A stretch of DNA of 17,687 bases from Candidatus Woesearchaeota archaeon (GCA_018302915.1 JAGVZB010000002.1:1-17687); one strand, 5' to 3'. Positions 3,328 through 17,480 are shown, counted from the first letter of the stretch. Program-made: numbers and translations. Notes: generated from the letters alone by a model not told the origin.

Positions 3328-4212
3328 ATGTATTCTCAAATATCAAAAAATAAGTGGAATTCATTATTTTTGTTTATACTATTTTTTATCCTAATAGGAG
3401 CAGTCGCATATGTTATTAATTTGTTGTTCTTTCAAGGATATTTGTTTATTATAGTTGCAGCAATAATTGCAATAATATTCTCTTTAATTAGTTATTATTC
3501 TGGAGACAAAATAGTTCTTTCAATGGTTAAAGCAAGAGAGGCAAACAAGAAAGATTATGCTCATTTGATCAATAGCGTTGAAGGTTTGTCAATAGCAGCA
3601 GGAATTCCTAGTCCAAAGGTTTATGTTATTCCAGGAATGCAAATCAATGCGTTTGCTTGTGGAGTTTCACCGAAGAAAGCATCAGTAGCTTTTACAGAAG
3701 GTTCATTGCAAAAATTAAACAGACAGGAATTGGAAGGAGTAATTGCACATGAACTTTCTCACATTAAAAATTATGATATAAGAGTGATGGTCCTTGCTTC
3801 TGTCTTGGTTGGAATAATAGTTTTTGCTAGTGAAATAATGCTGAGGAGTTTTATTTTTGGCGGTGTAAGGTCAAATGAGAATAAAGGGGGGAGTGCCCAG
3901 ATAATCCTGATTGCTGTTGGTGTTGTTTTGTTGATTCTTGCCCCGATAGTCGCACAGATAATTAAGTTTGCAATATCAAGGAAGCGTGAGTATCTTGCAG
4001 ATGCTTCTGGTGCTTTGTTGACGAGATATCCAAAAGGATTGGCAGATGCTTTGAGGAAAATAAAGGCAGACCACGAAGAATTAAGGACAGCTTCAAATGC
4101 AACAGCGCATATGTTTATTTCAAATCCTTTTAAGAAAAAACAATGGTTGGCGAGCATGTTTGCTAGTCATCCCGATATAAATGATAGAATTCAGAAACTA
4201 GATTCTATGTAA
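3328..4212 (+). CDS. htpX: HtpX-like M48 zinc metalloprotease (membrane)
   Basis: The 294-aa ORF has two N-terminal TM segments, HELSHIKNYD (HExxH), two further TM segments, REYLADASGA (third zinc-ligand Glu region) and a C-terminal SHPDINDRI. It starts 2 nt after the lemA stop, and lemA-htpX is a recurrent gene pair. Confidence 0.85.
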   Translation: MYSQISKNKWNSLFLFILFFILIGAVAYVINLLFFQGYLFIIVAAIIAIIFSLISYYSGDKIVLSMVKAREANKKDYAHLINSVEGLSIAAGIPSPKVYVIPGMQINAFACGVSPKKASVAFTEGSLQKLNRQELEGVIAHELSHIKNYDIRVMVLASVLVGIIVFASEIMLRSFIFGGVRSNENKGGSAQIILIAVGVVLLILAPIVAQIIKFAISRKREYLADASGALLTRYPKGLADALRKIKADHEELRTASNATAHMFISNPFKKKQWLASMFASHPDINDRIQKLDSM

Positions 4213-4272
4213 AAATTTCATGTAACTAAACTCTTTCATAAATTCATTTTGGATATATGTAATTCTTTTTTC
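4208..4272. repeat. Degenerate, non-coding duplicate of the rfcL 3' end; left direct repeat flanking cassette 1
   Basis: 4208-4244 is 37/37 identical to 5433-5469. The match continues to 4259/5485 with 2 mismatches and a 1-nt indel. After a 24-nt gap in this copy, 4260-4272 is 13/13 identical to 5510-5522. On the minus strand the indel breaks the rfcL reading frame. Confidence 0.85.
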
Positions 4273-4281
4273 AGAATATAA

Positions 4282-4773
4282 TTAATCACTTCTATTCCCT
4301 CTCAAGATTAGATTAATGTTCTTGAAAAAAGTTTCTGCATTTTCCAGACTTTCCTTTGCGGGAAGAAGATTTGCTTGGGGAAGTTTTTGATATGTAAATT
4401 CTCCTCTTTTTGATTTTTCTTTCTTGAAAATCCCAAGTAATTCCTCTGCCTTGATAAACATAGTCTTGTAAATATAAAGAAGTTCCACATCAATATGACC
4501 AGAATCTACAAACTTCTTAAACTCTTCATATGTCTTTTTGTGTTCTTCTGGAGGTTCAGTTACAATTCCATTCTTATATAAAAATGCCTTGGCAGAATAA
4601 AAGATGCAATAATAAGAGCTACTTATTACATTGCTGAAGAAAGTGGAATCATCTTTTAGTCCAAACTCTAATTTCAAATCAGATTCATTTGATAGCTTGA
4701 ATATTGCTTTTGCCAAGTCAAATTCATTCTTTGCCCTGTTTAGATAAAGTTGCTCTTTAAGGTCTGAATCCAT
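4282..4773 (-). CDS. HEPN-domain protein, partner of the upstream nucleotidyltransferase (cassette 1)
   Basis: The 163-aa all-helical ORF carries LNRAKNEFDLAKAIF, VISSSYYCIFYSAKAFLYKNGI, a conserved His (EEHKKTY) and KSKRGEFTYQ. It is collinear with the second copy at 16580-17164. It overlaps the NTase gene end by 17 nt. Confidence 0.6.
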   Translation of the reverse strand: MDSDLKEQLYLNRAKNEFDLAKAIFKLSNESDLKLEFGLKDDSTFFSNVISSSYYCIFYSAKAFLYKNGIVTEPPEEHKKTYEEFKKFVDSGHIDVELLYIYKTMFIKAEELLGIFKKEKSKRGEFTYQKLPQANLLPAKESLENAETFFKNINLILRGNRSD

Positions 4774-5374
4774 TTTTGTAAGCCTCTTTTATAAGATTGT
4801 AATAAATATCTGAATTATAGAATATTTTATGTTTTCTAAATATCTGCTTTCCAAGATTTTCTTCACTTCTTGTCAGCATCTCAATGAATTCATTAAACAA
4901 GATATAATGATCATCTACCTTTATTTTATAATTTAGCTTAATGTCATTTAAATAGGGTTTTATCTTTTTTTCATCTTCTTTATTGTTTATAAGAATAGAA
5001 ATGTCTATGTCTGAATCTTTTTTCTGCTTATTCTCAGCATAACTGCCAAAAACAATAAGGCAATATCCTTTTACAGGAATTTTATTTATTATATCAGAAA
5101 TAAGGTCCAGTCTTTCAAAATTTATGGATTCCTTAATTTCTAAAAAATCAAGAATTTTTAATGAAATGGGATTGGACAAGTTTAATGAATAAATATCTAA
5201 ATTGGATTTTCTATTTGAATTTAATATTTTATTTTTTACAAGATGTTTTAATGTATTAAATATCCATGTTTTTGTTTTTTTGTTTAAACTCTTCATTATC
5301 TCCATTCTGCTTAAATTGCTGAACGGATTTTTTCTCCAGACTTCCAAAACCCTTATTTTTTCATCAGTTCTCAT
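4757..5374 (-). CDS. Winged-helix (wHTH) plus minimal nucleotidyltransferase (Pol-beta/MNT fold) protein (cassette 1)
   Basis: The 205-aa ORF has an N-terminal ~70 aa HTH-like region (SRMEIMKSLNKKTKTWIFNTLKHLVKNKIL). The NTase signature follows: LIVFGSYAENKQKKDSDIDISILI (G-S ... D-x-D) with a downstream acidic VDDH. Confidence 0.75.
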   Translation of the reverse strand: MRTDEKIRVLEVWRKNPFSNLSRMEIMKSLNKKTKTWIFNTLKHLVKNKILNSNRKSNLDIYSLNLSNPISLKILDFLEIKESINFERLDLISDIINKIPVKGYCLIVFGSYAENKQKKDSDIDISILINNKEDEKKIKPYLNDIKLNYKIKVDDHYILFNEFIEMLTRSEENLGKQIFRKHKIFYNSDIYYNLIKEAYKNGFRP

Positions 5375-5388
5375 AAATGTTATAACTA

Positions 5389-5425
5389 TTACTTATTTAA
5401 ATACCTTTCGTTACTTATTTAAATA
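5389..5425 (-). promoter_or_regulatory. Tandem 15-nt direct repeat (ttacttatttaaata x2, 22-bp period) containing the TATA box of the cassette-1 operon; candidate promoter/operator
   Basis: The two copies at 5389-5403 and 5411-5425 are perfect. On the minus strand each reads tatttaaataagtaa. The proximal copy lies at about -15 to -29 relative to the NTase ATG (5374). Confidence 0.5.
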
Positions 5426-5428
5426 ATT

Positions 5429-6499
5429 TTAGTGTAAAAATTTCATGTAACTAAACTCTTTCATAAATTTATTTTTGGACATATGCAGCTCTTTTGATAA
5501 TTTTTCAGATAATTCTTTTTTCCTGTCTTCTTTCCTGTTATTTATCCAGATTTTTAGAATTCTTGAGTTTCTTTTGTAGCTGACAAACTTATTGTCCTCT
5601 TTATCCTTGGAAAAAGCCACGCCAAGATTCATTAGTATGTTCTCATAAACCAGAAATCTCCAGTATTGCCATCTTCTTATCCTTCCCCTGAAGACATCAG
5701 CCTTGCTCAGATAATCATAAGCATGTTTAACGTTGTTGTATTCATAAGGGATATTTTCTTCCAACCATAAAAATACTTCATCAAGGTCTTCATCAAGCAA
5801 TTCAATTGATTTTAATATTTCTTTCTGATTTTTTGTTTTGAATATATTTTTTAATGCATTAAGGATTGTTTCTTTTTTTTCCCTTGTGTCAATATCATCC
5901 TTGCTTATCATCAGCAGTTCAAGGTCATTGATGGCGCTTCTTACATCCCCTTTGGAATTAATGGCTATTTTTCTTAGATGTTCTTCATCAACATTCTTAT
6001 CTTCCCTGTAAATAATGCTCTTTAAAATCTTTAAAACATCAAGATAATTCAGCTTGTCAAACTGAATCAATTCACAGTTTTTTCTTAGCTCCTTGAACTT
6101 TGAATCCCAGATATCATTGCCTATAATAATCACAGAATGTCCTGTTTCTTTTAATATGTCTACAATTTCTGTTATTGCTCCTTTATCCTTGCTGTTTAGC
6201 CCGTCAATTTCGTCTATTAATATTATTTTACCTTTTGAGAATAAGCTTGCCTGTCTTGCAGATCCCCCAACTTTTTCATCAATTTGTTCCTTGTTCCTGT
6301 AATCGCTGGCATTTATCTCCAGAATTTCATAATCTAAATCCCTTGCTAGTGCATGAACAGAAGAACTTTTTCCAATGCCAGGAATTCCATAAATTAATGC
6401 TGCTTTTTTATCGTTGACAGATTTTTTTAATTTAGATATAGCATTATCTTGGCCTATAATTTCCTTTAAACTCTTTGGCTTGTATTTATTTAACAGCAT
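5429..6499 (-). CDS. rfcL: Replication factor C large subunit (clamp loader)
   Basis: The protein begins MLLNKYKPKSLKEIIGQ (the RFC box II-like start), then has Walker A YGIPGIGKSS, ILEINASDYRNK, Walker B IILIDEIDGL, VIIIGND and GDVRSAINDLE. The start is placed at the internal ATG at 6499, giving 356 aa. The ORF track's 6577 start would add 26 non-conserved residues. Confidence 0.85.
   Translation of the reverse strand: MLLNKYKPKSLKEIIGQDNAISKLKKSVNDKKAALIYGIPGIGKSSSVHALARDLDYEILEINASDYRNKEQIDEKVGGSARQASLFSKGKIILIDEIDGLNSKDKGAITEIVDILKETGHSVIIIGNDIWDSKFKELRKNCELIQFDKLNYLDVLKILKSIIYREDKNVDEEHLRKIAINSKGDVRSAINDLELLMISKDDIDTREKKETILNALKNIFKTKNQKEILKSIELLDEDLDEVFLWLEENIPYEYNNVKHAYDYLSKADVFRGRIRRWQYWRFLVYENILMNLGVAFSKDKEDNKFVSYKRNSRILKIWINNRKEDRKKELSEKLSKELHMSKNKFMKEFSYMKFLH
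5433..5522. repeat. Right direct repeat flanking cassette 1; this is the functional 3' end of rfcL
   Basis: This is the partner of 4208-4272. Here the sequence is in frame and encodes the RFC large-subunit C-terminus ...HMSKNKFMKEFSYMKFLH*. Confidence 0.85.
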
Positions 6500-7055
6500 T
6501 TTGTAAAAAATTAACAATTCCTTTTTCAAATTTTGGATAATATTGATTAACTCTATCCCATTCATATCCAAGTTCATCTATATCTCTTTCTTGCTGTAAT
6601 ACTTTCTTGAAATATTCTTTGCCATATAAATTCTCAGTAACCCTTCTTTGAATCAATAAGACAGGAAAATGAACTTTAAAGTCATAATCTTCATATCCAA
6701 ATTTCTTTCTTATTAGTTCAAGAACTTTTTTATTATCTTTTAACAAAACATGAATTAATTCATGAATCAAGATTCCAGTTATAACATCAGAATTCTTATT
6801 GTATTTTAAAGTGAAAGGAAAACTTATTGCATTGAAATCCATATCCTTAACAGTAAAACATCTTACTTTGTAACTAAACTTCAATCCAGAAATCTTTTCT
6901 ATTTCATTTTTTATTTTCTTTCCCTCTTTTTCCCAGAAAGATTGTAAAGAAGCAGTAAATCTTTCCATGTCAACATATTGTTTTCCAGAATATTTTTTCT
7001 TCTTCATTGAAGTAAATAGTTCATCATACACCGAGGAATAAACAAAGTCAATCAT
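6486..7055 (-). CDS. Hypothetical protein with HExxH motif (possible zincin-like metallopeptidase), embedded in the RFC operon
   Basis: The 189-aa ORF has ATGA overlap with the rfcS stop (7052-7055) and a 14-nt overlap with the rfcL start. The only recognisable motif is GILIHELIHVLL, followed by candidate ligands (E/H within ~15-30 aa). No family assignment is possible by eye. Confidence 0.5.
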   Translation of the reverse strand: MIDFVYSSVYDELFTSMKKKKYSGKQYVDMERFTASLQSFWEKEGKKIKNEIEKISGLKFSYKVRCFTVKDMDFNAISFPFTLKYNKNSDVITGILIHELIHVLLKDNKKVLELIRKKFGYEDYDFKVHFPVLLIQRRVTENLYGKEYFKKVLQQERDIDELGYEWDRVNQYYPKFEKGIVNFLQNAVK

Positions 7056-10946: not shown

Positions 10947-11516
10947 ATGAGTAAGAATTCATCAAAACCAGAAATAAAAATACAAAATATAGTTGTTTCT
11001 ACTTCTCTTGAACATGACATACCATTGATAAAGCTTGCAGAAACTTTGCCAAATACAGAATATAATCCTGAGCAGTTTCCGGGATTGGTTATGAGGATAA
11101 AAGATCCGAAAACATCGGCATTGATATTCAGCTCTGGAAAAGTGGTGTGTACAGGAGCGAAATCTTTAACTAAAGTGAAGGAATCATTACAGAAAATAAT
11201 CAAGAATCTTGCTAAGATAAAAATAAGAATAAAAGTTAAGCCGAAGATAAATGTCCAGAATATGGTGGCTTCAGGGGACATCAAGATGGACTTGAATTTA
11301 AACTTCCTTGCTTTAAAGCTGCCAAATACGGAATATGAGCCTGAGCAATTCCCGGGTTTGGTATTCAAGCTTCAAGGGACAAGGGCAACTTTTTTGCTTT
11401 TTAGCAATGGAAAGATAGTATGCACTGGTACAAGGTCGGAAGTTGCATTGAAAGAGTCTGTTGATAAGTTGGTCATTGTGTTGAAAAAAATAAAGAAAGA
11501 TGCAAAACATAAATGA
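10947..11516 (+). CDS. tbp: TATA-box-binding protein (two TBP repeats)
   Basis: The 189-aa ORF contains two direct TBP repeats. The first reads IQNIVVSTSLEHDIPL..LPNTEYNPEQFPGLVMRIKDPKTSALIFSSGKVVCTGAKS. The second reads VQNMVASGDIKMDLNL..LPNTEYEPEQFPGLVFKL...TFLLFSNGKIVCTGTRS. Confidence 0.95.
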   Translation: MSKNSSKPEIKIQNIVVSTSLEHDIPLIKLAETLPNTEYNPEQFPGLVMRIKDPKTSALIFSSGKVVCTGAKSLTKVKESLQKIIKNLAKIKIRIKVKPKINVQNMVASGDIKMDLNLNFLALKLPNTEYEPEQFPGLVFKLQGTRATFLLFSNGKIVCTGTRSEVALKESVDKLVIVLKKIKKDAKHK

Positions 11517-14500
11517 GCAGATAGAGAATTTTAAGGGCTTTATTGAGCAATATTATGAAAAAAAACTGCATGAGCTTGATTCAAAGGGAGTTCATTCCGT
11601 TTACATTGATTTCTTTGAGATAGCAGAGTATTCTCCTGAGCTGGCTGAGTTTATTTTGGAAAATCCGGAAGATGCTGTAAAATCTTTTGAACTGGCAATT
11701 TCTGAGTTTGAAATAAATTTGAAGCCAAGAATATTTAATTTGCCAAAATCACAGTTCCTTAATATAAGGGACATAAGATCTCAGCATCTTGGAAAATTTA
11801 TTTACATAGAGGGTATTGTAAGGCAGGCTTCAGATGTAAGGCCTCAGGTTACTTCTGCTAAATTTGAATGCCCCACATGCGGAAATACTCTTTCAATATT
11901 GCAGCTTGATACAAAATTCAAGGAGCCAAGCAGATGCTCTTGCGGCAATAAAACGAGGTTCAGGTTGTTGTCAAAGGATTTGATTGATGCACAAAGGCTA
12001 GTTATAGAAGAATCTCCTGAAAATCTTGAAGGGGGGGAGCAGTCAAAGAGGCTTCCGGTTTATTTGAAGGAGGATTTGGTTGAGCCTAAGATGGAGAAGA
12101 AAACAACTCCTGGTTCTAAGGTAAGGGTGAATGGTATAATAAAAGAGATTTCTATTTTACTAAGTGCAGGTGCTAAATCTATAAATTATGATTTAAGCAT
12201 GGATGCTAATTCTATAATACCAATTGAAGAAACATTTGAGGAAATAGAGATATCAAAAGAGGATGAAGAGAAAATAAAGGAGCTTTCCAGGGATCCTTTG
12301 GTTTATGAAAAATTAATAGGTTCTATTGCTCCGTCAATTTATGGTCATGAGAAAATAAAGGAGGCAATTATTCTTCAGTTAATGTCTGGTGTAAGAAAGG
12401 TAAAGGATGATGGCACAATAATAAGGGGGGATATGCACATTCTTTTGGTTGGTGATCCTGGAGCGGCTAAATCCTCATTATTGCAGTTTGTTTCAAAATC
12501 AGCTCCTAAGGCAAGGTTTGTTTCAGGTAAGGGAAGCAGCGGAGCTGGTTTGACCGCCAGTGTAATAAAAGATGAATTCATCAGGGGTTGGGCATTGGAA
12601 GCGGGAGCATTGGTTTTGGCAAATGGAGGATTAGCAGCAATAGATGAATTGGATAAGATGTCCCCTGAAGACAGAAGTGCAATCCATGAAGCGTTGGAGC
12701 AGCAGCAGGTTAGCATTGCAAAAGCAAATATACAGGCATGTTATTCTTCAGATACAGAAGTATTAACAAATTATGGATGGAAAAAATATTGGGAAATTAA
12801 AGATGAAAAATTAGCCCAATATAATCTTACCCAGAAAATTATTGAATTTTTACAACATGATGGATTGTTTGTGTATAACTATGTAGGTAAGATGTATCAT
12901 TTTAAGAATAAAAGAATAGATATATTCGTTACACCAAATCATAAAATGTTAACGAAAGAACTAAGGCAAAAAGAGTACAGAGCTATTGAAGCAGAAAAAA
13001 TAAGATATAATCGTATAAAATTTCTTAATTCAGGAAACTTTTTAGGTAAAGAAGAAAGATATTTTATTTTACCTCCTATAAAACACAAACAAAATAGAAT
13101 TCATATTAAATATGTACATCAACACAAACCTAAAAAGATTCCTATGAACTTATGGTTAGAATTCTTGGGTTACTATTTAACTGAAGGGGGGATACAAAGA
13201 AAGCCAACAATAGGAATTCCCCAAAAAGATAAAAAAAATATAATTAAAATAAAAAAATGTCTTTTTAAATTATCAAAATATGTTGGATTTACTTTAAGTG
13301 AGACAAAAGATAAGCAATATATTAGGTTTCAAATTACAAACACCCAATTATTTGAATTCTTGGAAAAAAATTGTGGCAAAAAATGTATTGAAAAAAAATA
13401 TCCATTAGATTTGTCTAATCTATCTAAAAAACAATTAAAAATTTTATATGATGCAATGATGCTCGGAGATGGTTCTTCAGATGGAAAAAGCTTTAGTTCT
13501 ACGTCTATTGAACTAATAAACTTATTTCAATCAATAGCCTTACTTATTGGTAAATCTACAAGCAAAAATATACAATATTTAGAAAAATCTAGAAGGAATA
13601 GGGTAACTTTGTATAGGGTAACTTTATCCAACAAAACAGAACCCTCTATAAAAAAGAATAAAATAAAAAATATATATTATGATGGAAAGGTATTTTGCTT
13701 TTCAACGAAAACTGGTTTTTTTGTTACAAGACGAAACGGAAAAGTGACTATACAAGGTAACACATTAAGAGCTCAGACAAGTGTTTTGGCGGCGGCAAAT
13801 CCAAAGCTTGGAAGATTTGATCCTTATTCTCCAATAGCTAGCCAGATAGATTTGCCTCCAACTTTAATTAACAGGTTTGATTTGATATTTCCTGTTAGGG
13901 ATATTCCAAATAGGGAAAAGGATGAGAAGATAGCATCTCATGTTCTTGAACTGCAGAAGAGATCTGGAAAAATAGAATCAGAAATAAGTACAAAATTATT
14001 GAGAAAATATATTGCATATGCAAAGCAGCATGTAAAACCTATTCTTACAGATGGCGCTGTTGATGAAATAAAAAAGTTTTATGTCAATCTAAGAAATAAG
14101 GGGCAGTCCTCTGAGGAGGAAATAAAGCCGATCCCAATAAGTGCAAGGCAGCTTGAAGCTTTAGTAAGGCTGTCAGAAGCATCAGCAAAAGTGAGGTTAT
14201 CCAAGGAAGTAAAAAGAAAGGATGCAAAGAGGGCAATTGATATATTGACGTATTGCCTGATGCAGGTAGGAATAGATCCAGAAACTGGAAAAATAGACAT
14301 AGACAGGATTTCAACAGGGATAACTGCAACCCAAAGATCAAGGATAGTTGTTATAAGAGAGATAATAAGGGAGCTTGAATCAAAGCATGGAAAGTCAATT
14401 CCTATGGAGGCAATATTCGAGGAAGCATCCAAGAAAGGTTATAATGAAGACCATGTGGAAGAGGCGATAGAAAAACTGAAAAGAGAGGCTGAAGTATACA

Positions 14501-14532
14501 ATCCAAAGCAGAATTTTGTTTCAAGGCTTTAG
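11500..14532 (+). CDS. mcm: MCM replicative helicase interrupted by one intein (669-aa extein plus 341-aa intein)
   Basis: The protein has an N-terminal C4 zinc finger (CPTCGN...CSCGN), Walker A GDPGAAKSS and Walker B AAIDELDKM. The extein junction reads SIAKANIQA|...|TLRAQTSVLAAANP (sensor 1), followed by the arginine-finger region SRFDLIF-like NRFDLIFPV, sensor 2 PISARQLEALVRLSEA and a C-terminal wH. The start overlaps the tbp end by 17 nt. Confidence 0.95.
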   Translation: MQNINEQIENFKGFIEQYYEKKLHELDSKGVHSVYIDFFEIAEYSPELAEFILENPEDAVKSFELAISEFEINLKPRIFNLPKSQFLNIRDIRSQHLGKFIYIEGIVRQASDVRPQVTSAKFECPTCGNTLSILQLDTKFKEPSRCSCGNKTRFRLLSKDLIDAQRLVIEESPENLEGGEQSKRLPVYLKEDLVEPKMEKKTTPGSKVRVNGIIKEISILLSAGAKSINYDLSMDANSIIPIEETFEEIEISKEDEEKIKELSRDPLVYEKLIGSIAPSIYGHEKIKEAIILQLMSGVRKVKDDGTIIRGDMHILLVGDPGAAKSSLLQFVSKSAPKARFVSGKGSSGAGLTASVIKDEFIRGWALEAGALVLANGGLAAIDELDKMSPEDRSAIHEALEQQQVSIAKANIQACYSSDTEVLTNYGWKKYWEIKDEKLAQYNLTQKIIEFLQHDGLFVYNYVGKMYHFKNKRIDIFVTPNHKMLTKELRQKEYRAIEAEKIRYNRIKFLNSGNFLGKEERYFILPPIKHKQNRIHIKYVHQHKPKKIPMNLWLEFLGYYLTEGGIQRKPTIGIPQKDKKNIIKIKKCLFKLSKYVGFTLSETKDKQYIRFQITNTQLFEFLEKNCGKKCIEKKYPLDLSNLSKKQLKILYDAMMLGDGSSDGKSFSSTSIELINLFQSIALLIGKSTSKNIQYLEKSRRNRVTLYRVTLSNKTEPSIKKNKIKNIYYDGKVFCFSTKTGFFVTRRNGKVTIQGNTLRAQTSVLAAANPKLGRFDPYSPIASQIDLPPTLINRFDLIFPVRDIPNREKDEKIASHVLELQKRSGKIESEISTKLLRKYIAYAKQHVKPILTDGAVDEIKKFYVNLRNKGQSSEEEIKPIPISARQLEALVRLSEASAKVRLSKEVKRKDAKRAIDILTYCLMQVGIDPETGKIDIDRISTGITATQRSRIVVIREIIRELESKHGKSIPMEAIFEEASKKGYNEDHVEEAIEKLKREAEVYNPKQNFVSRL
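12739..13761 (+). mobile_element. Intein with LAGLIDADG homing-endonuclease domain inside the MCM ATPase core
   Basis: Cys1 (tgt, 12739) opens block A, CYSSDTEVLT. Block B is VTPNHKML (T-x-x-H). The two LAGLIDADG motifs are LEFLGYYLTEGG and LYDAMMLGDGSS. The C-terminal FFVTRRNGKVTIQGN is followed by the +1 Thr (13762). Removing these 341 aa restores the canonical MCM sequence IAKA.I.A-TL.A..SVLAAANP. Confidence 0.9.
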
Positions 14533-15240: not shown

Positions 15241-15648
15241 ATGGAATATGAAAAACTGCTGGAAAATGCATACAAGAACCTACCTAAGGTTAAGACAGAT
15301 GATTCCAGGTTTGAAATTCCAAAGGCTCAGGGCCATGTGCAGGGAAGCAAGACAATAATAGTGAATTTTGTTAAGATAGCCCAGATTTTGAGGAGGGATG
15401 TTTCGCATCTGCAGAAATATCTGCTTAGGGAGCTGGCATCGCCGGGAAATCTTGATGGTCCAAGGCTGATACTGAACAGGAAAATATCCTCAGTTTTGAT
15501 AAACCAGAAAGTAGAGCAGTATGCCAAGGATTTTGTCATATGTAAGGAATGTGGAAAGCCAGACACCACATTGAAGAAGGAAGAAAGGTTTACATATGTC
15601 AAATGCCAGGCTTGCGGGGCAAAGCATTACATCAAGTCCAAAATATGA
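15241..15648 (+). CDS. eif2b: Translation initiation factor aIF2 beta subunit
   Basis: The 135-aa ORF has YEKLLENAY..LP, RFEIPKAQGHVQGSKTIIVNF..IA..L.RD..HL.KYL..ELAS.G and a C-terminal C4 zinc ribbon (CKECGKPDT...CQACGA). Confidence 0.9.
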   Translation: MEYEKLLENAYKNLPKVKTDDSRFEIPKAQGHVQGSKTIIVNFVKIAQILRRDVSHLQKYLLRELASPGNLDGPRLILNRKISSVLINQKVEQYAKDFVICKECGKPDTTLKKEERFTYVKCQACGAKHYIKSKI

Positions 15649-15932
15649 TATTCGTGAAAGAGCATATTCATAACAATAGGAAATTATTGGCCATTTGTGA
15701 TGGTAATTTGATAGGAAAAATTTTTGAGGAAGGGGATAAAATCCTTAATGTTTCCAAGAATTTTTATCATGGAGAGCCTATGTTTGAGAAAGATATTTTA
15801 AAATTGATTGAAGACAATATTTTATTGAACATAGTTGGGGATGAATCCATAAAATTTGCATTGAAGAATGAATTAATAGACAAAAAAGGGATAATAAGGA
15901 TTAAGAACATACCACATGCTATGTTATTATAA
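15645..15932 (+). CDS. DUF424-family small protein (commonly found next to aIF2-beta in archaea)
   Basis: The start is set at the ATG in the ATGA overlap with the eif2b stop (15645-15648). The 95-aa protein reads MIFVKEHIHNNRKLLAICDGNLIGKIFEEGDKILNVSKNFYHGEP...NIVGDESIKFALKNELIDKKGIIRIKNIPHAMLL, which matches my recollection of the DUF424 pattern. The ORF-track start at 15549 lies inside eif2b. Confidence 0.65.
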   Translation: MIFVKEHIHNNRKLLAICDGNLIGKIFEEGDKILNVSKNFYHGEPMFEKDILKLIEDNILLNIVGDESIKFALKNELIDKKGIIRIKNIPHAMLL

Positions 15933-15949
15933 TATTATATTCAAAAGAT
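15924..15949. repeat. Left imperfect direct repeat flanking cassette 2 (DUF424 stop plus a decayed copy of the next gene's first 6 codons)
   Basis: ttattataatattatattcaaaagat matches 17170-17195 (ttattataatgctatactcaaatgat) at 22/26 positions. Read in frame, ATA TTA TAT TCA AAA GAT corresponds to ATG CTA TAC TCA AAT GAT. Confidence 0.55.
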
Positions 15950-15996
15950 TTAAATATAACTAAAAAGGTATACTTCTATATCAAAAAAGTGATAAA

Positions 15997-16590
15997 ATGT
16001 TAACAAAAACTCAATTTAAAATAATGCAAATTTTTGTATCTAAGATAAATGAAAAATTTAGCATTAAAAGAGTATCAGAAAATCTAAAAAAACCTTACCC
16101 ATTAGTCCATAGATCTATTAAGGCATTAATTGATAATAAATTTATATCAAAGGACAGACAAAATTTTTTATCTTTAAATCACAAACAAAATCATTCAGAA
16201 CTTGCTTACATAGAATCTTTAAGAAAAAAAGAATTCCTTGAAAGCAATAAAACAATTACTTTGTTTATAAATGATGTTATGGAAAAAATTAATTTAGATT
16301 TATTTATTTTCTTAATTTTTGGTTCTCATATTAAAAAGCAAAAATCAAGAGATATAGATATTTTAGTTATTATTGAAGACAAAAAAAAAGTTAATATTAT
16401 AGAAAAAATCTTAAATAATATAGCATCTAATTTTACTGTCAAATTTGATGTTAATATTATCTCAGTTGAAAGTGCCTATGAAATGCTTGCTAAAAGGGAT
16501 AAAATCAACATTGTAAATGAAACTCTTGATAATCATCTTTTAATTTTTGGTGCTGAAAATTATTATAGGTTATTAAAAAATGCTAGATGA
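15997..16590 (+). CDS. Winged-helix (wHTH) plus minimal nucleotidyltransferase protein (cassette 2; diverged paralogue of 4757-5374)
   Basis: The 197-aa ORF has an N-terminal HTH-like region (FSIKRVSENLKKPYPLVHRSIKALIDNKFI). The NTase signature is FLIFGSHIKKQKSRDIDILVII (G-S ... D-x-D) with a downstream FDVN. It has the same length class and domain order as the cassette-1 protein. Confidence 0.75.
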   Translation: MLTKTQFKIMQIFVSKINEKFSIKRVSENLKKPYPLVHRSIKALIDNKFISKDRQNFLSLNHKQNHSELAYIESLRKKEFLESNKTITLFINDVMEKINLDLFIFLIFGSHIKKQKSRDIDILVIIEDKKKVNIIEKILNNIASNFTVKFDVNIISVESAYEMLAKRDKINIVNETLDNHLLIFGAENYYRLLKNAR

Positions 16591-17164
16591 AAAAAGGATT
16601 GCTGAAATAAAAAGAAGAGTAACTAATTTTATAAAAGAGGGTATAATCAAAAAAGAGAAGGAGAGCAAATTTGTAGATTTTTTTCTAAATAACGCAAAAA
16701 ACTCGCTCGATTCTGCTAAATTATTATTTGAAGTTTCAACTAAGAATAATCTTAAAAATTTAACAGGTTTTCCTAATTTTAATGGATTTTTATGGGTTAT
16801 AAATTCAAGTTATTATTCAATGTTTTATATGGTAAGGACATTGCTTGAAAATGAAGGAATCAGGATAAAAGCTGATTTATCAATTCATGCTGTTACTTTT
16901 GATGCATTAGTTCATTATTTTTATATCACAGGAAAATTACAAAAGAGATTAATAGAAGATTTTAATGAAGCGAAAGAGGAAGCATCAGAAATGCTTGGAA
17001 AGGAAAAAGCTAAAGAACTTATTGAAGATTATTTTTATGAAAAAAATAAAAGAGGCACTTTTACCTATGAAATGGGGGCAATTGCAATGCAAAATAAAGC
17101 CCAAACTTCGCTGGAAAGAGCAAAAAGATTTAATGAAGAAATAAGAAAAATAATTGAAATTTAA
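16580..17164 (+). CDS. HEPN-domain protein (cassette 2; diverged paralogue of 4282-4773)
   Basis: The 194-aa ORF has LNNAKNSLDSAKLLF, VINSSYYSMFYMVRTLLENEGI, a conserved His (LSIHAVTF) and KNKRGTFTYE. It overlaps the NTase gene by 11 nt. Confidence 0.6.
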   Translation: MLDEKRIAEIKRRVTNFIKEGIIKKEKESKFVDFFLNNAKNSLDSAKLLFEVSTKNNLKNLTGFPNFNGFLWVINSSYYSMFYMVRTLLENEGIRIKADLSIHAVTFDALVHYFYITGKLQKRLIEDFNEAKEEASEMLGKEKAKELIEDYFYEKNKRGTFTYEMGAIAMQNKAQTSLERAKRFNEEIRKIIEI

Positions 17165-17169
17165 AAAAT

Positions 17170-17195
17170 TTATTATAATGCTATACTCAAATGAT
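17170..17195. repeat. Right imperfect direct repeat flanking cassette 2 (relic of the DUF424 end tta tta taa fused to the ATG of the next gene)
   Basis: This is the partner of 15924-15949 (22/26). It contains a TAATG stop/start overlap (17176-17180), which would be the pre-insertion DUF424/NMD3-like junction. Confidence 0.55.
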
Positions 17196-17480
17196 GATTA
17201 TTATGAGGCCAAGCTGCAGTTAAGGCCTTATGACAGGGAATTGATCGATTATACGAAAAGATTGATAGATGAAAACAAGAACATATTGATCGCAAAGGAG
17301 ATGGAATTCAAGTATGGAGTTGATTTCCTGACAAATTCGCAGAAGGAAACACAGAAGATAGCAAAGCAGCTGAAGAAAAAGTTCAAGGGAGTTATAACAT
17401 TGTCAAGAAAGCTGTTTGGAGTTCATAGGATGACTTCAAAAAGGGTTTGGAGAGTGACAGTTTGCTTCAGGAAAGAATGA
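17178..17480 (+). CDS. Small protein, tentatively NMD3-like (COG1499-type) domain without zinc fingers
   Basis: The 100-aa protein runs from the ATG at 17178: MLYSNDDYYEAKLQLRPYD...KYGVDFLTNSQKETQKIAKQLKKKF..VITLSRKLFGVHRMTSKRVWRVTVCFR. It resembles the YEA.(I/L)QLR ... G(I/V)DF ... S.KL.G.D ... R core of NMD3-family proteins as I recall it. The ORF-track start at 17154 would overlap the HEPN gene. Confidence 0.35.
   Translation: MLYSNDDYYEAKLQLRPYDRELIDYTKRLIDENKNILIAKEMEFKYGVDFLTNSQKETQKIAKQLKKKFKGVITLSRKLFGVHRMTSKRVWRVTVCFRKE

Follow-up and report, generated by a model that had tools for sequence, protein, structure and literature searches.

Probable insertion of an NTase/HEPN gene pair, with target duplication, at an overlapping stop/start junction of a woesearchaeal operon

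How can a two-gene unit settle between genes whose stop and start codons overlap, and leave both of them intact? This question is raised by a 17,687-nucleotide stretch of Candidatus Woesearchaeota DNA (GCA_018302915.1 JAGVZB010000002.1:1-17687; this whole stretch is hereafter called the window), a 32% GC fragment from a groundwater member of these DPANN archaea, of which identical contigs are present in Rifle and other aquifer metagenomes. In the window, the genes of a nucleotidyltransferase (NTase2) and of a HEPN-like partner (HEPN2), together named cassette 2, stand between a DUF424 gene and a small NMD3-like gene. The analyses described here make it very likely that cassette 2 was inserted at an overlapping stop/start junction with duplication of the target, and that both flanking genes survived the event.

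The main trace of this insertion is a direct repeat that brackets NTase2 and HEPN2. Its left copy (15924..15949, + strand; TTATTATAATATTATATTCAAAAGAT) and its right copy (17170..17195, + strand; TTATTATAATGCTATACTCAAATGAT) are identical at 22 of 26 positions, with a start-to-start spacing of 1246 bp, as the original prediction had described. The gene context that it had assigned to the two copies, with the DUF424 stop on the left and TTA TTA TAATG plus the NMD3-like start on the right, was also recovered, the gene identities being now supported by Pfam. The left copy carries the functional end of DUF424 (TTATTATAA), including its TAA stop at 15930-15932, and continues into a decayed, non-coding version of the NMD3-like start (ATA TTA TAT TCA AAA GAT). 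In the right copy, which begins 5 nt past the HEPN2 stop, a non-functional DUF424 end (TTA TTA TAA) overlaps as TAATG with the functional NMD3-like start, located 13 nt past the same stop. The sequences adjoining cassette 2 are ATATTATATTCAAAAGAT (5') and TTATTATAA (3'). The DUF424 protein ends in ...IPHAMLL*, and the relatives aligned at this point read ...IPHALLL* or IPHAIIL*. A diagonal scan (scoring +1/-2) found no third copy of the repeat within the 17.7-kb window.

The length of the duplication requires some care. The left copy ends in 8 nt (CAAAAGAT) that occupy precisely the position of the B recognition element (BRE) conserved in the cassette family, and therefore the duplication measures 18-26 nt: the ~26-bp length first proposed is an upper limit, secure for ~18 nt, and its last 8 nt coincide with the family BRE. 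It is possible, and would be the simplest reading, that the 5' junction formed at an 8/9 microhomology, since the target also reads CAAA(A/T)GAT. On the other side, the closest cassette homologs (L097 and L098) have no TTATTATAA after the HEPN stop, and therefore the right copy is not cassette-borne.

The condition of this junction in relatives provides the second line of evidence. Scanning of GTDB species genomes with the IleRS of the window, followed by tblastn with all window proteins, identified nine species-level relatives carrying the string TBP-MCM-RPA-aIF2beta-DUF424-NMD3-like, with the NMD3-like gene directly 3' of DUF424 in all nine. The two genes meet in an ATGA overlap in three of them (L016, L036 and L044) and in a TAATG overlap in L094, and are separated by spacers of 1-4 nt in the rest (L052-L055 and L072). 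Closer relatives, reached through NMD3-like homologs, form two lineages from the same aquifer samples (L196-L199 and L201-L204; ~80-85% amino acid identity), where a 95-aa DUF424 shares a 4-nt ATGA overlap with the NMD3-like gene (...GCATTATTATTATGATATATTCAAATGAAGATTATTATGAGGC). Altogether, the DUF424/NMD3-like junction is empty in 11 related lineages and duplicated in none of them, and the two cassette-2 copies align with the single-copy junction of the relatives (TTATTATTATGATATATTCAAATGA in L196; TTATTATAATGCTATACTCAAAAGAT in the right copy of L200, described below). The NMD3-like gene thus appears to have been originally in translational coupling with DUF424, and the NTase2/HEPN2 pair to be a lineage-specific insertion into the coupled junction. 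Because DUF424 and NMD3-like are coupled at this point, an insertion leaves both genes intact only if the junction is duplicated. The ancestral operon with ATGA and TAATG overlaps had been predicted from the window, and the comparison with relatives that had been recommended revealed DUF424 directly coupled to NMD3-like, with no insert. At other gene-content differences among the relatives (extra genes at IleRS/TBP, RPA/aIF2beta and aIF2beta/DUF424), no repeats above background were detected; those genes are possibly ancestral.

The same junction is also split in L200, whose NMD3-like protein is 83% identical to that of the window, by a 1.35-kb insert containing the gene of a 417-aa AAA_14/DUF4143 ATPase. 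The repeats are located at 1636-1660 and 3009-3035 in L200 and at 1762-1790 in L205, which has the ATPase/NMD3 junction in common with L200; the right copy of the window is present in both. In the left flank of L200 (...CACGCTTTATTTTTATAATGCTCATTCAAAGGTTTAAAT...), the DUF424 stop and the TAATG overlap are kept and the NMD3 start can be recognised, the left copy with the intact TAATG being TTTTTATAATGCTCATTCAAAGG (TAATGCT). The right flank reads ...GGAGATGGTTATTATAATGCTATACTCAAAAGATGATTAT..., and the ATPase open reading frame (ORF) ends in W-L-L-stop within the duplicated TTA TTA TAA. The left copy of the window matches the right copy of L200 at 23 of 26 positions. Judging from these alignments, the ancestral junction of the window/L200 clade was TAATG, in agreement with the original prediction, and the left pseudo-copy of the window is a real copy of the NMD3 start, because the left copy of L200 has G and C where that of the window has A and T. 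The A/T mismatch in TCAAA(A/T)GAT is probably a change in the functional copy of the window (Lys to Asn), since TCAAAAGA is found both in L201 and in L200's right copy. The repeat boundaries are identical in the window and L200, and TTTAAAT follows the left copy in both. Either one ancestral duplication was followed by replacement of the cargo, or the site was hit twice; the duplication may be older than the present cargo. The window, L200, L196 and L201 are roughly equidistant (74-87% amino acid identity), and the phylogeny does not order one versus two insertions. A candidate remnant of the NTase cassette in L200 beyond the TATA box was discarded, its alignment being not significant (p=0.06).

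A second, independent locus of the window bears the same kind of mark. Cassette 1 (coding part 4282..5374, - strand) comprises NTase1 (5374-4757; Pfam NTP_transf_2/Polbeta, E=1e-8) and HEPN1 (4773-4282; HEPN, E=2e-3), and sits between the convergent genes of an M48 peptidase (3328-4212, +) and of RFC-large (5429-6577, -). Its repeat is the top repeat of the window, identical at 42 of 43 positions between 4208-4250 and 5433-5475 and extending to ~68 nt with gaps, and the repeat-to-repeat spacing of 1225 bp given earlier is correct. The copy at 5426..5495 is the functional target, i.e., the real 3' end of RFC-large, while the one at 4202..4269 (core 4208-4250) is a pseudo-copy of that end, whose first bases are the end of the M48 gene. 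The pseudo-copy, now displaced, has the ending ...FLHRI* and overlaps with the M48 stop (4202-4212), and the last codon and stop of the present RFC-large (CAC TAA, 5429-5434) are supplied by cassette-1 DNA. The insertion therefore appears to have given an essential gene a remodelled C-terminus. In L036 and L072, the M48 and RFC-large genes lie next to each other in convergent orientation, with no insert; a 1.3-kb gap between them in L052 turned out to contain metK and not a cassette. NTase1 and NTase2 are distant paralogs (27% amino acid identity). The region upstream of NTase1 (5375..5432, - strand) contains a 22-nt tandem duplication at 5389-5432 (TTACTTATTTAAATACCTTTCG / TTACTTATTTAAATAATTTTAG) with a TATA-like TTTAAATA in each unit, which suggests a cassette-1 promoter with two TATA-like boxes.

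The mark is recurrent in the cassette family. NTase2 has 408 homologs at E<1e-5, mostly in DPANN archaea, and among the matches listed the best are mostly 55-78% identical. A metagenome scan with a 38-sequence NTase alignment yielded 80 loci. Wherever the flanks were usable (51 cassettes), the 200-nt segments upstream of the NTase ATG and downstream of the HEPN stop were compared with each other. Among 41 non-redundant cassettes, 9 have direct flanking repeats with a score of at least 14, a level attained by 2 of the 147 shifted controls, so that the proposed survey of other NTase/HEPN pairs did uncover recurrent long duplications. These repeats of 17-92 nt are all unrelated in sequence, several of them span gene ends, and their identity is 80-100%. 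The longest ungapped matches are those of L097 (65/66; 69 nt with gaps), L104 (61/67; ~92 nt with gaps) and L101 (50/53; 53 nt), followed by cassette 1 of the window, L145 (39/42; 42 nt), L173 (36/36; 36 nt), L161 (24/27; 27 nt), cassette 2 of the window (22/26; 26 nt) and L108 (17/17; ~57 nt with gaps). The downstream copy usually starts 0-12 nt past the HEPN stop, the distance from the end of the upstream copy to the cassette promoter is 0-25 nt, and the repeat-delimited units measure 1156-1451 nt. Both control outliers are themselves repeat-flanked inserts of other small genes, namely RelE/VapC-like pairs in L124 and a 376-aa ORF in L108, and the repeat scar may not be confined to NTase/HEPN cargo. 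In L124, 54-nt repeats (~80% identity; 2144-2197 and 3613-3666) surround RHH/RelE-like and RHH/PIN-like pairs; in L108, repeats matching at 29/35 nt (4783-4817 and 6181-6215) surround the single ORF, which is Cys-rich. Tandem cassettes also occur (L104:4001-6489; L158:2714-5165; L100:5172-5233), and in L104 the TATA box of a resident NT1-type cassette was the insertion site of a cassette of the NT2 type, with ~92 nt duplicated and a BRE/TATA copy in each.

Several observations weigh against the insertion of cassette 2 with target duplication. The repeat is short and AT-rich, and about 80% of the family members have no detectable repeat, which could be due to decay or to another mode of insertion. 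A filled/empty polymorphic pair within one species was not found, and no donor was identified among the contigs with exact proteins: look-ups of the exact DUF424, NMD3-like and M48 proteins returned 20+ contigs, all carrying both cassettes, and an apparent HEPN deletion in L003 proved to be a scaffold gap of Ns. The other points that speak against it are those on which its rivals draw.

The rival that survives best, and which we nevertheless consider unlikely, is a Campbell-type or site-specific integration, in which a circular cassette with an attP-like copy of the junction was integrated by an integrase acting in trans or by host recombination; the repeats would then be attL and attR, and the junction a reusable docking site. 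This possibility fits the ATPase cargo that L200 and L205 hold within the repeat boundaries of the window, with the left flank of L200 homologous through the repeat into TTTAAAT, a situation that a one-off random capture does not predict. Moreover, archaeal att sites cover a range of lengths that includes the 26-92 nt of the repeats, and some family members adjoin tRNA-Leu or tRNA-Leu-3'-like fragments that resemble att sites, as would be expected from att-type integration. Such cassettes were seen in L130 (3826-3911 and 5308-5352), L145 (1098-1139 and 2389-2433) and L154 (5178-5225); the fragments (GACATCAC...CCTCCCGCA) start right past the HEPN stop, and their att-like aspect hints at a second integration mode. 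The motif GACATCAC, present after several cassettes, is absent from the window. However, the repeats of different cassettes have no common core and each matches its local target, the 5' and 3' boundaries of the cassettes do not keep a fixed position with respect to promoter and stop codon, and the closest homologous cassettes do not carry the junction sequence found here. In addition, Pfam searches detected no transposase, integrase or other mobility genes in the inserts or in the window, and NTase relatives were not found in IMG/VR viral contigs.

Chance resemblance is a weaker alternative and seems highly improbable. It supposes that the cassette entered exactly between stop and start without any duplication, and that the match derives from AT-rich composition and from the cassette BRE. 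Indeed, in the window-wide scan the cassette-2 match scores 14 and ties with ~10 others, being no outlier; CAAAAGAT fits the BRE consensus of the family, so that part of the 22/26 match is possibly cassette-borne; and without the BRE part the NMD3 side, over its first 10 nt, matches at only 7/10, which is not significant alone in the anchored test described next. The permutations tell otherwise, and the comparison with shuffled flanks suggested at the outset leaves only that window-wide scan unremarkable. When shuffling was restricted to the flanks, the match was reached in 0 of 500 trials with 200-nt flanks and in 0 of 1000 with 100-nt flanks. Mismatched pairs of upstream and downstream flanks from other cassettes reach it in ~0.3% of cases, after dropping the hits due to the tandem cassette of L158, which exposes the conserved promoter of the family, and 145 of 147 shifted pseudo-cassettes at the same loci score 12 or less. 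In the anchored test, where the DUF424 stop was aligned on the NMD3 start in 9 plausible registers and 20000 shuffles were made, the full comparison gives 23/27 matches, reached by none of the shuffles; minus the 8 nt of the BRE overlap it gives 16/19, reached by 2; and the DUF424-end copy alone gives 9/9 in the TAATG-overlap register, reached by 79. Besides, the two genes overlap or nearly abut in relatives, where a duplication-free insertion would have broken one of them, the left copy of L200 independently keeps TAATGCT, and strong duplications are present at cassette 1 and in other family members.

A two-step origin, in which slippage makes a tandem duplication that serves as a neutral spacer and DNA (the cassette here, the ATPase in L200/L205) is captured later, would explain the different cargos within identical repeat boundaries and recalls the tandem duplication followed by insertion or recombination discussed elsewhere as an alternative to one-step insertion (PMC3457768), but there is very little chance that it applies, given that relatives offer no cargo-free duplicated junction, all 11 empty sites being unduplicated, and that two rare events would be needed at each of at least nine repeat-flanked cassettes.

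Returning to one-step insertion with target duplication, we propose the following course of events. In an ancestor, a promoter-to-stop module of ~1.22 kb (BRE/TATA/operator, NTase with a winged helix-turn-helix, HEPN-like partner) would have entered the TAATG junction of DUF424 and NMD3-like, with direct duplication of 18-26 nt of target, so that the left copy kept the DUF424 end and stop and the right copy the NMD3-like start; the redundant half of each copy would have decayed later. Cassette 1 would represent the same kind of insertion at the convergent M48/RFC-large junction, with ~43-68 nt duplicated, and about one fifth of the homologous cassettes carry the same mark, with a different repeat sequence each time. 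Since the cassette has neither a recombinase nor defined ends, the joining might have been carried out by host break-repair or replication, in one of two ways: widely staggered breaks were filled in around the captured DNA, or replication left the chromosome and re-entered it 18-90 nt upstream through a template switch, with microhomology such as the CAAA(A/T)GAT at the 5' junction as a probable guide. In very compact genomes, the only survivors might be insertions with a duplication across the gene boundary, and an addictive, toxin-antitoxin (TA)-like cargo could aid retention of the insert.

The mobile-cassette model of the original prediction gains from the second duplication, at cassette 1. 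No terminal inverted repeats were detected in the nine repeat-delimited cassettes (all p>0.15), and neither Rfam families nor attC-like elements were matched in the window. For two exact NTase variants, P0109 in 20 contigs and P0060 in 7, a single genomic context each was observed, which rules out recent multi-copy transposition for both. As no recombinase, no terminal repeats and one context per exact variant were observed, the term mobile cassette should not be taken to mean an autonomous element.

The predicted promoter of cassette 2 (15942..15994, + strand) consists of a BRE-like CAAAAGA (15942-15948), a TATA box TTTAAATATAA (15949-15959) and a palindromic block CTAAAAAGGTATA...TATATCAAAAAAGTGATA (15960-15994, + strand) with a putative promoter/operator function. 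This 5' block is conserved in the 60 nt upstream of the NTase ATG in ~37 independent cassettes of the NT2 type (L097-L174) as a BRE-like CNAAARR, a TATA box TTTAWATATAA and a palindrome CTAAAWAGRTATA-N-TATATCWAAAWAGTTATA, and the palindromic block is presumably the binding site of the winged helix-turn-helix of the NTase itself, which would provide autoregulation. NTase2 (15997..16590, + strand; 197 aa) combines this N-terminal domain with a minimal Pol-beta-type nucleotidyltransferase (Pfam Polbeta, E=1e-4), in which G109, S110, D119 and D121 of the GS...DxD motif, the MNT catalytic GSx(9-10)DxD, are invariant across 38 homologs. HEPN2 (16580..17164, + strand; 194 aa) has a weak Pfam HEPN match (E=2e-3), and the scores of both window partners are below the gathering threshold. 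In 46 HEPN partners the conserved C-terminal motif is K157-R158-x-x-F161-T162-Y163 (KRxxFTY), and an Rx4-6H motif was not found, there being no His at the expected spacing. The ORFs of NTase and HEPN overlap by 11 nt in cassette 2 (16580-16590) and also overlap in cassette 1 (4757-4773), and the pairing is kept in 54 of the 84 NTase matches listed, most of the others showing a contig end or no partner ORF. In NCBIfam, the MntA cut-off is 60 bits and the scores obtained are 17.6 and 35.5, neither window HEPN partner matches any family, including HepT, and PADLOC returns weak matches to the candidate system PDC-M05 (PDC-M05A/B). From these sequence features the cassette would be an MNT-HEPN-like (minimal nucleotidyltransferase and HEPN) two-gene module, not a demonstrated member of HepT/MntA.

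Around cassette 2, the aIF2-beta gene (15241..15648, + strand; Pfam eIF-5_eIF-2B, E=2e-34) leads the conserved aIF2beta-DUF424-NMD3-like string, whose synteny is kept in the nine relatives. It shares an ATGA overlap with the DUF424 gene (15645..15932, + strand; 95 aa; Pfam DUF424, E=4e-18), and the string ends with the NMD3-like gene (17178..17480, + strand, ATG at 17178; 100 aa; Pfam NMD3, E=1.5e-10), which has probably been co-transcribed with cassette 2 since the insertion. The GC content of cassette 2 is 0.236, against 0.414 in aIF2-beta, 0.278 in DUF424 and 0.373 in NMD3-like; the contrast pointed out previously is real, although the 55% then given for aIF2-beta was the maximum of a single 60-nt line and overstated it. 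Elsewhere in the window, MCM (11500-14532) contains a ~324-aa insert at residues ~424-747 (window 12769-13740; GC 0.24-0.27), which looks intein-like, with homing-endonuclease-like sequence, and has no counterpart in the MCM of 8 relatives; at the same place, L055 carries another insert. A direct match of 21/23 between 124-146, upstream of a Trm5-like gene, and 4263-4285, at the 3' edge of cassette 1 (TTCTTTTTTCATAATATTATTAA / TTCTTTTTTCAGAATATAATTAA), is the third-best repeat in the window and may be due to chance or to a T-rich, terminator-like element.

Beyond this locus, the mobility of TA-like modules has long been asserted without a mechanism, and the DPANN NTase/HEPN family displays a reproducible scar, consisting of long, event-specific duplications with no mobility genes. 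The scar suggests how ultra-compact genomes with overlapping genes could gain genes and remain unbroken, the duplication restoring both gene ends, and it may even be a source of new C-terminal codons for a neighbour or for the cargo. With repeat identities of 80-100%, the family would offer dozens of dated events on which junction microhomology and duplication length can be measured. A bolder idea, which we consider unlikely, is that DPANN archaea possess a pathway that does not depend on the cargo, works with neither transposase nor integrase, and places promoter-to-stop cassettes at gene boundaries with duplications of 17-92 nt. Junctions such as DUF424/NMD3-like would then be reusable docking sites, where one cargo is replaced by another within unchanged repeat boundaries (NTase/HEPN in the window, the AAA_14/DUF4143 ATPase in L200/L205). 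If so, this pathway would resemble a cassette platform that lacks a recombinase, and the movement of TA-like modules would have a concrete explanation.

Comparison with known systems places these features in context. As to cargo, the cassettes resemble HepT-MntA (type VII TA) in having small, adjacent, overlapping genes for a Pol-beta NTase with GS...DxD and a HEPN-fold partner, and MNT-HEPN modules in general in their patchy, mobile distribution. In contrast to HepT-MntA, the NTase here has an N-terminal winged helix-turn-helix, and the partner carries KRxxFTY in place of Rx4-6H (RX4HXY in HepT). HepT-MntA is further characterised by a toxic HEPN that the NTase neutralises through AMPylation. 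Operons of Thermus and Deinococcus were reported to contain recently inserted MNT-HEPN genes (PMC2701414), and for DPANN the presence of MNT/HEPN genes within housekeeping contexts was noted (PMC6393860), in both cases without repeats or a mechanism.

As to mode of insertion, two kinds of elements share only part of the picture. TA cassettes are common in chromosomal integrons, and integron cassettes, like those described here, are compact units of one or two genes between host genes, at a site that is possibly reused (L200). However, the repeat follows the HEPN2 stop after only 5 nt, no attC, no conserved 3' end of the family and no integrase in the window were found, and the repeats are target-specific with no common core, which differs from both integron and att integration. 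IS1634, IS1549 and IS1630, insertion sequences (IS) of the IS4 family, are described in passages of PMC2853133 and PMC2266710 as making long duplications of variable length, against the usual 2-14 bp. The IS1634-type elements are DDE transposons with a transposase, terminal inverted repeats and many near-identical copies, none of which is seen in the cassettes.

The closest parallel is the insertion with long target duplication described for restriction-modification (RM) genes of bacteria (Nobusato, 2000, Gene 259:99; Furuta, Abe and Kobayashi, 2010, NAR 38:2428; PMC2853133). Furuta et al. reported unique repeats of tens of bp overlapping gene ends, with no mobility genes, using a cut-off of >30 bp (PMC2853133); the mechanism is not established, although the authors proposed double-strand breaks made by the RM system (PMC2853133), and the phenomenon is also cited in PMC3457768. 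In both cases relatives lack a small, self-contained and potentially addictive module at the syntenic site, event-specific direct repeats of tens of bp, often over gene ends, align with a single-copy target, transposase, integrase and inverted repeats are lacking, and the insert often has a lower GC content than the host. The repeat of cassette 2, with 18-26 nt, is under the 30-bp cut-off of Furuta et al. and above typical IS duplications, while cassette 1 (43-68 nt) and other family members (27-92 nt) reach above 30 bp. In the searchable literature, which is incomplete, no report of long target duplication was found for TA or MNT-HEPN cassettes or in archaea. The present case differs in its cargo, which is NTase/HEPN (TA-like) and not RM, in its host, a DPANN archaeon and not a bacterium, and in that one target is a translationally coupled, overlapping stop/start junction. 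As the cargo here includes no DNA endonuclease, a role of RM-made double-strand breaks cannot apply. Therefore, since the same scar accompanies bacterial RM systems and a cargo without a DNA nuclease, it is not attributable to breaks made by the cargo, and it points to a host repair or replication pathway that would be common to bacteria and archaea.

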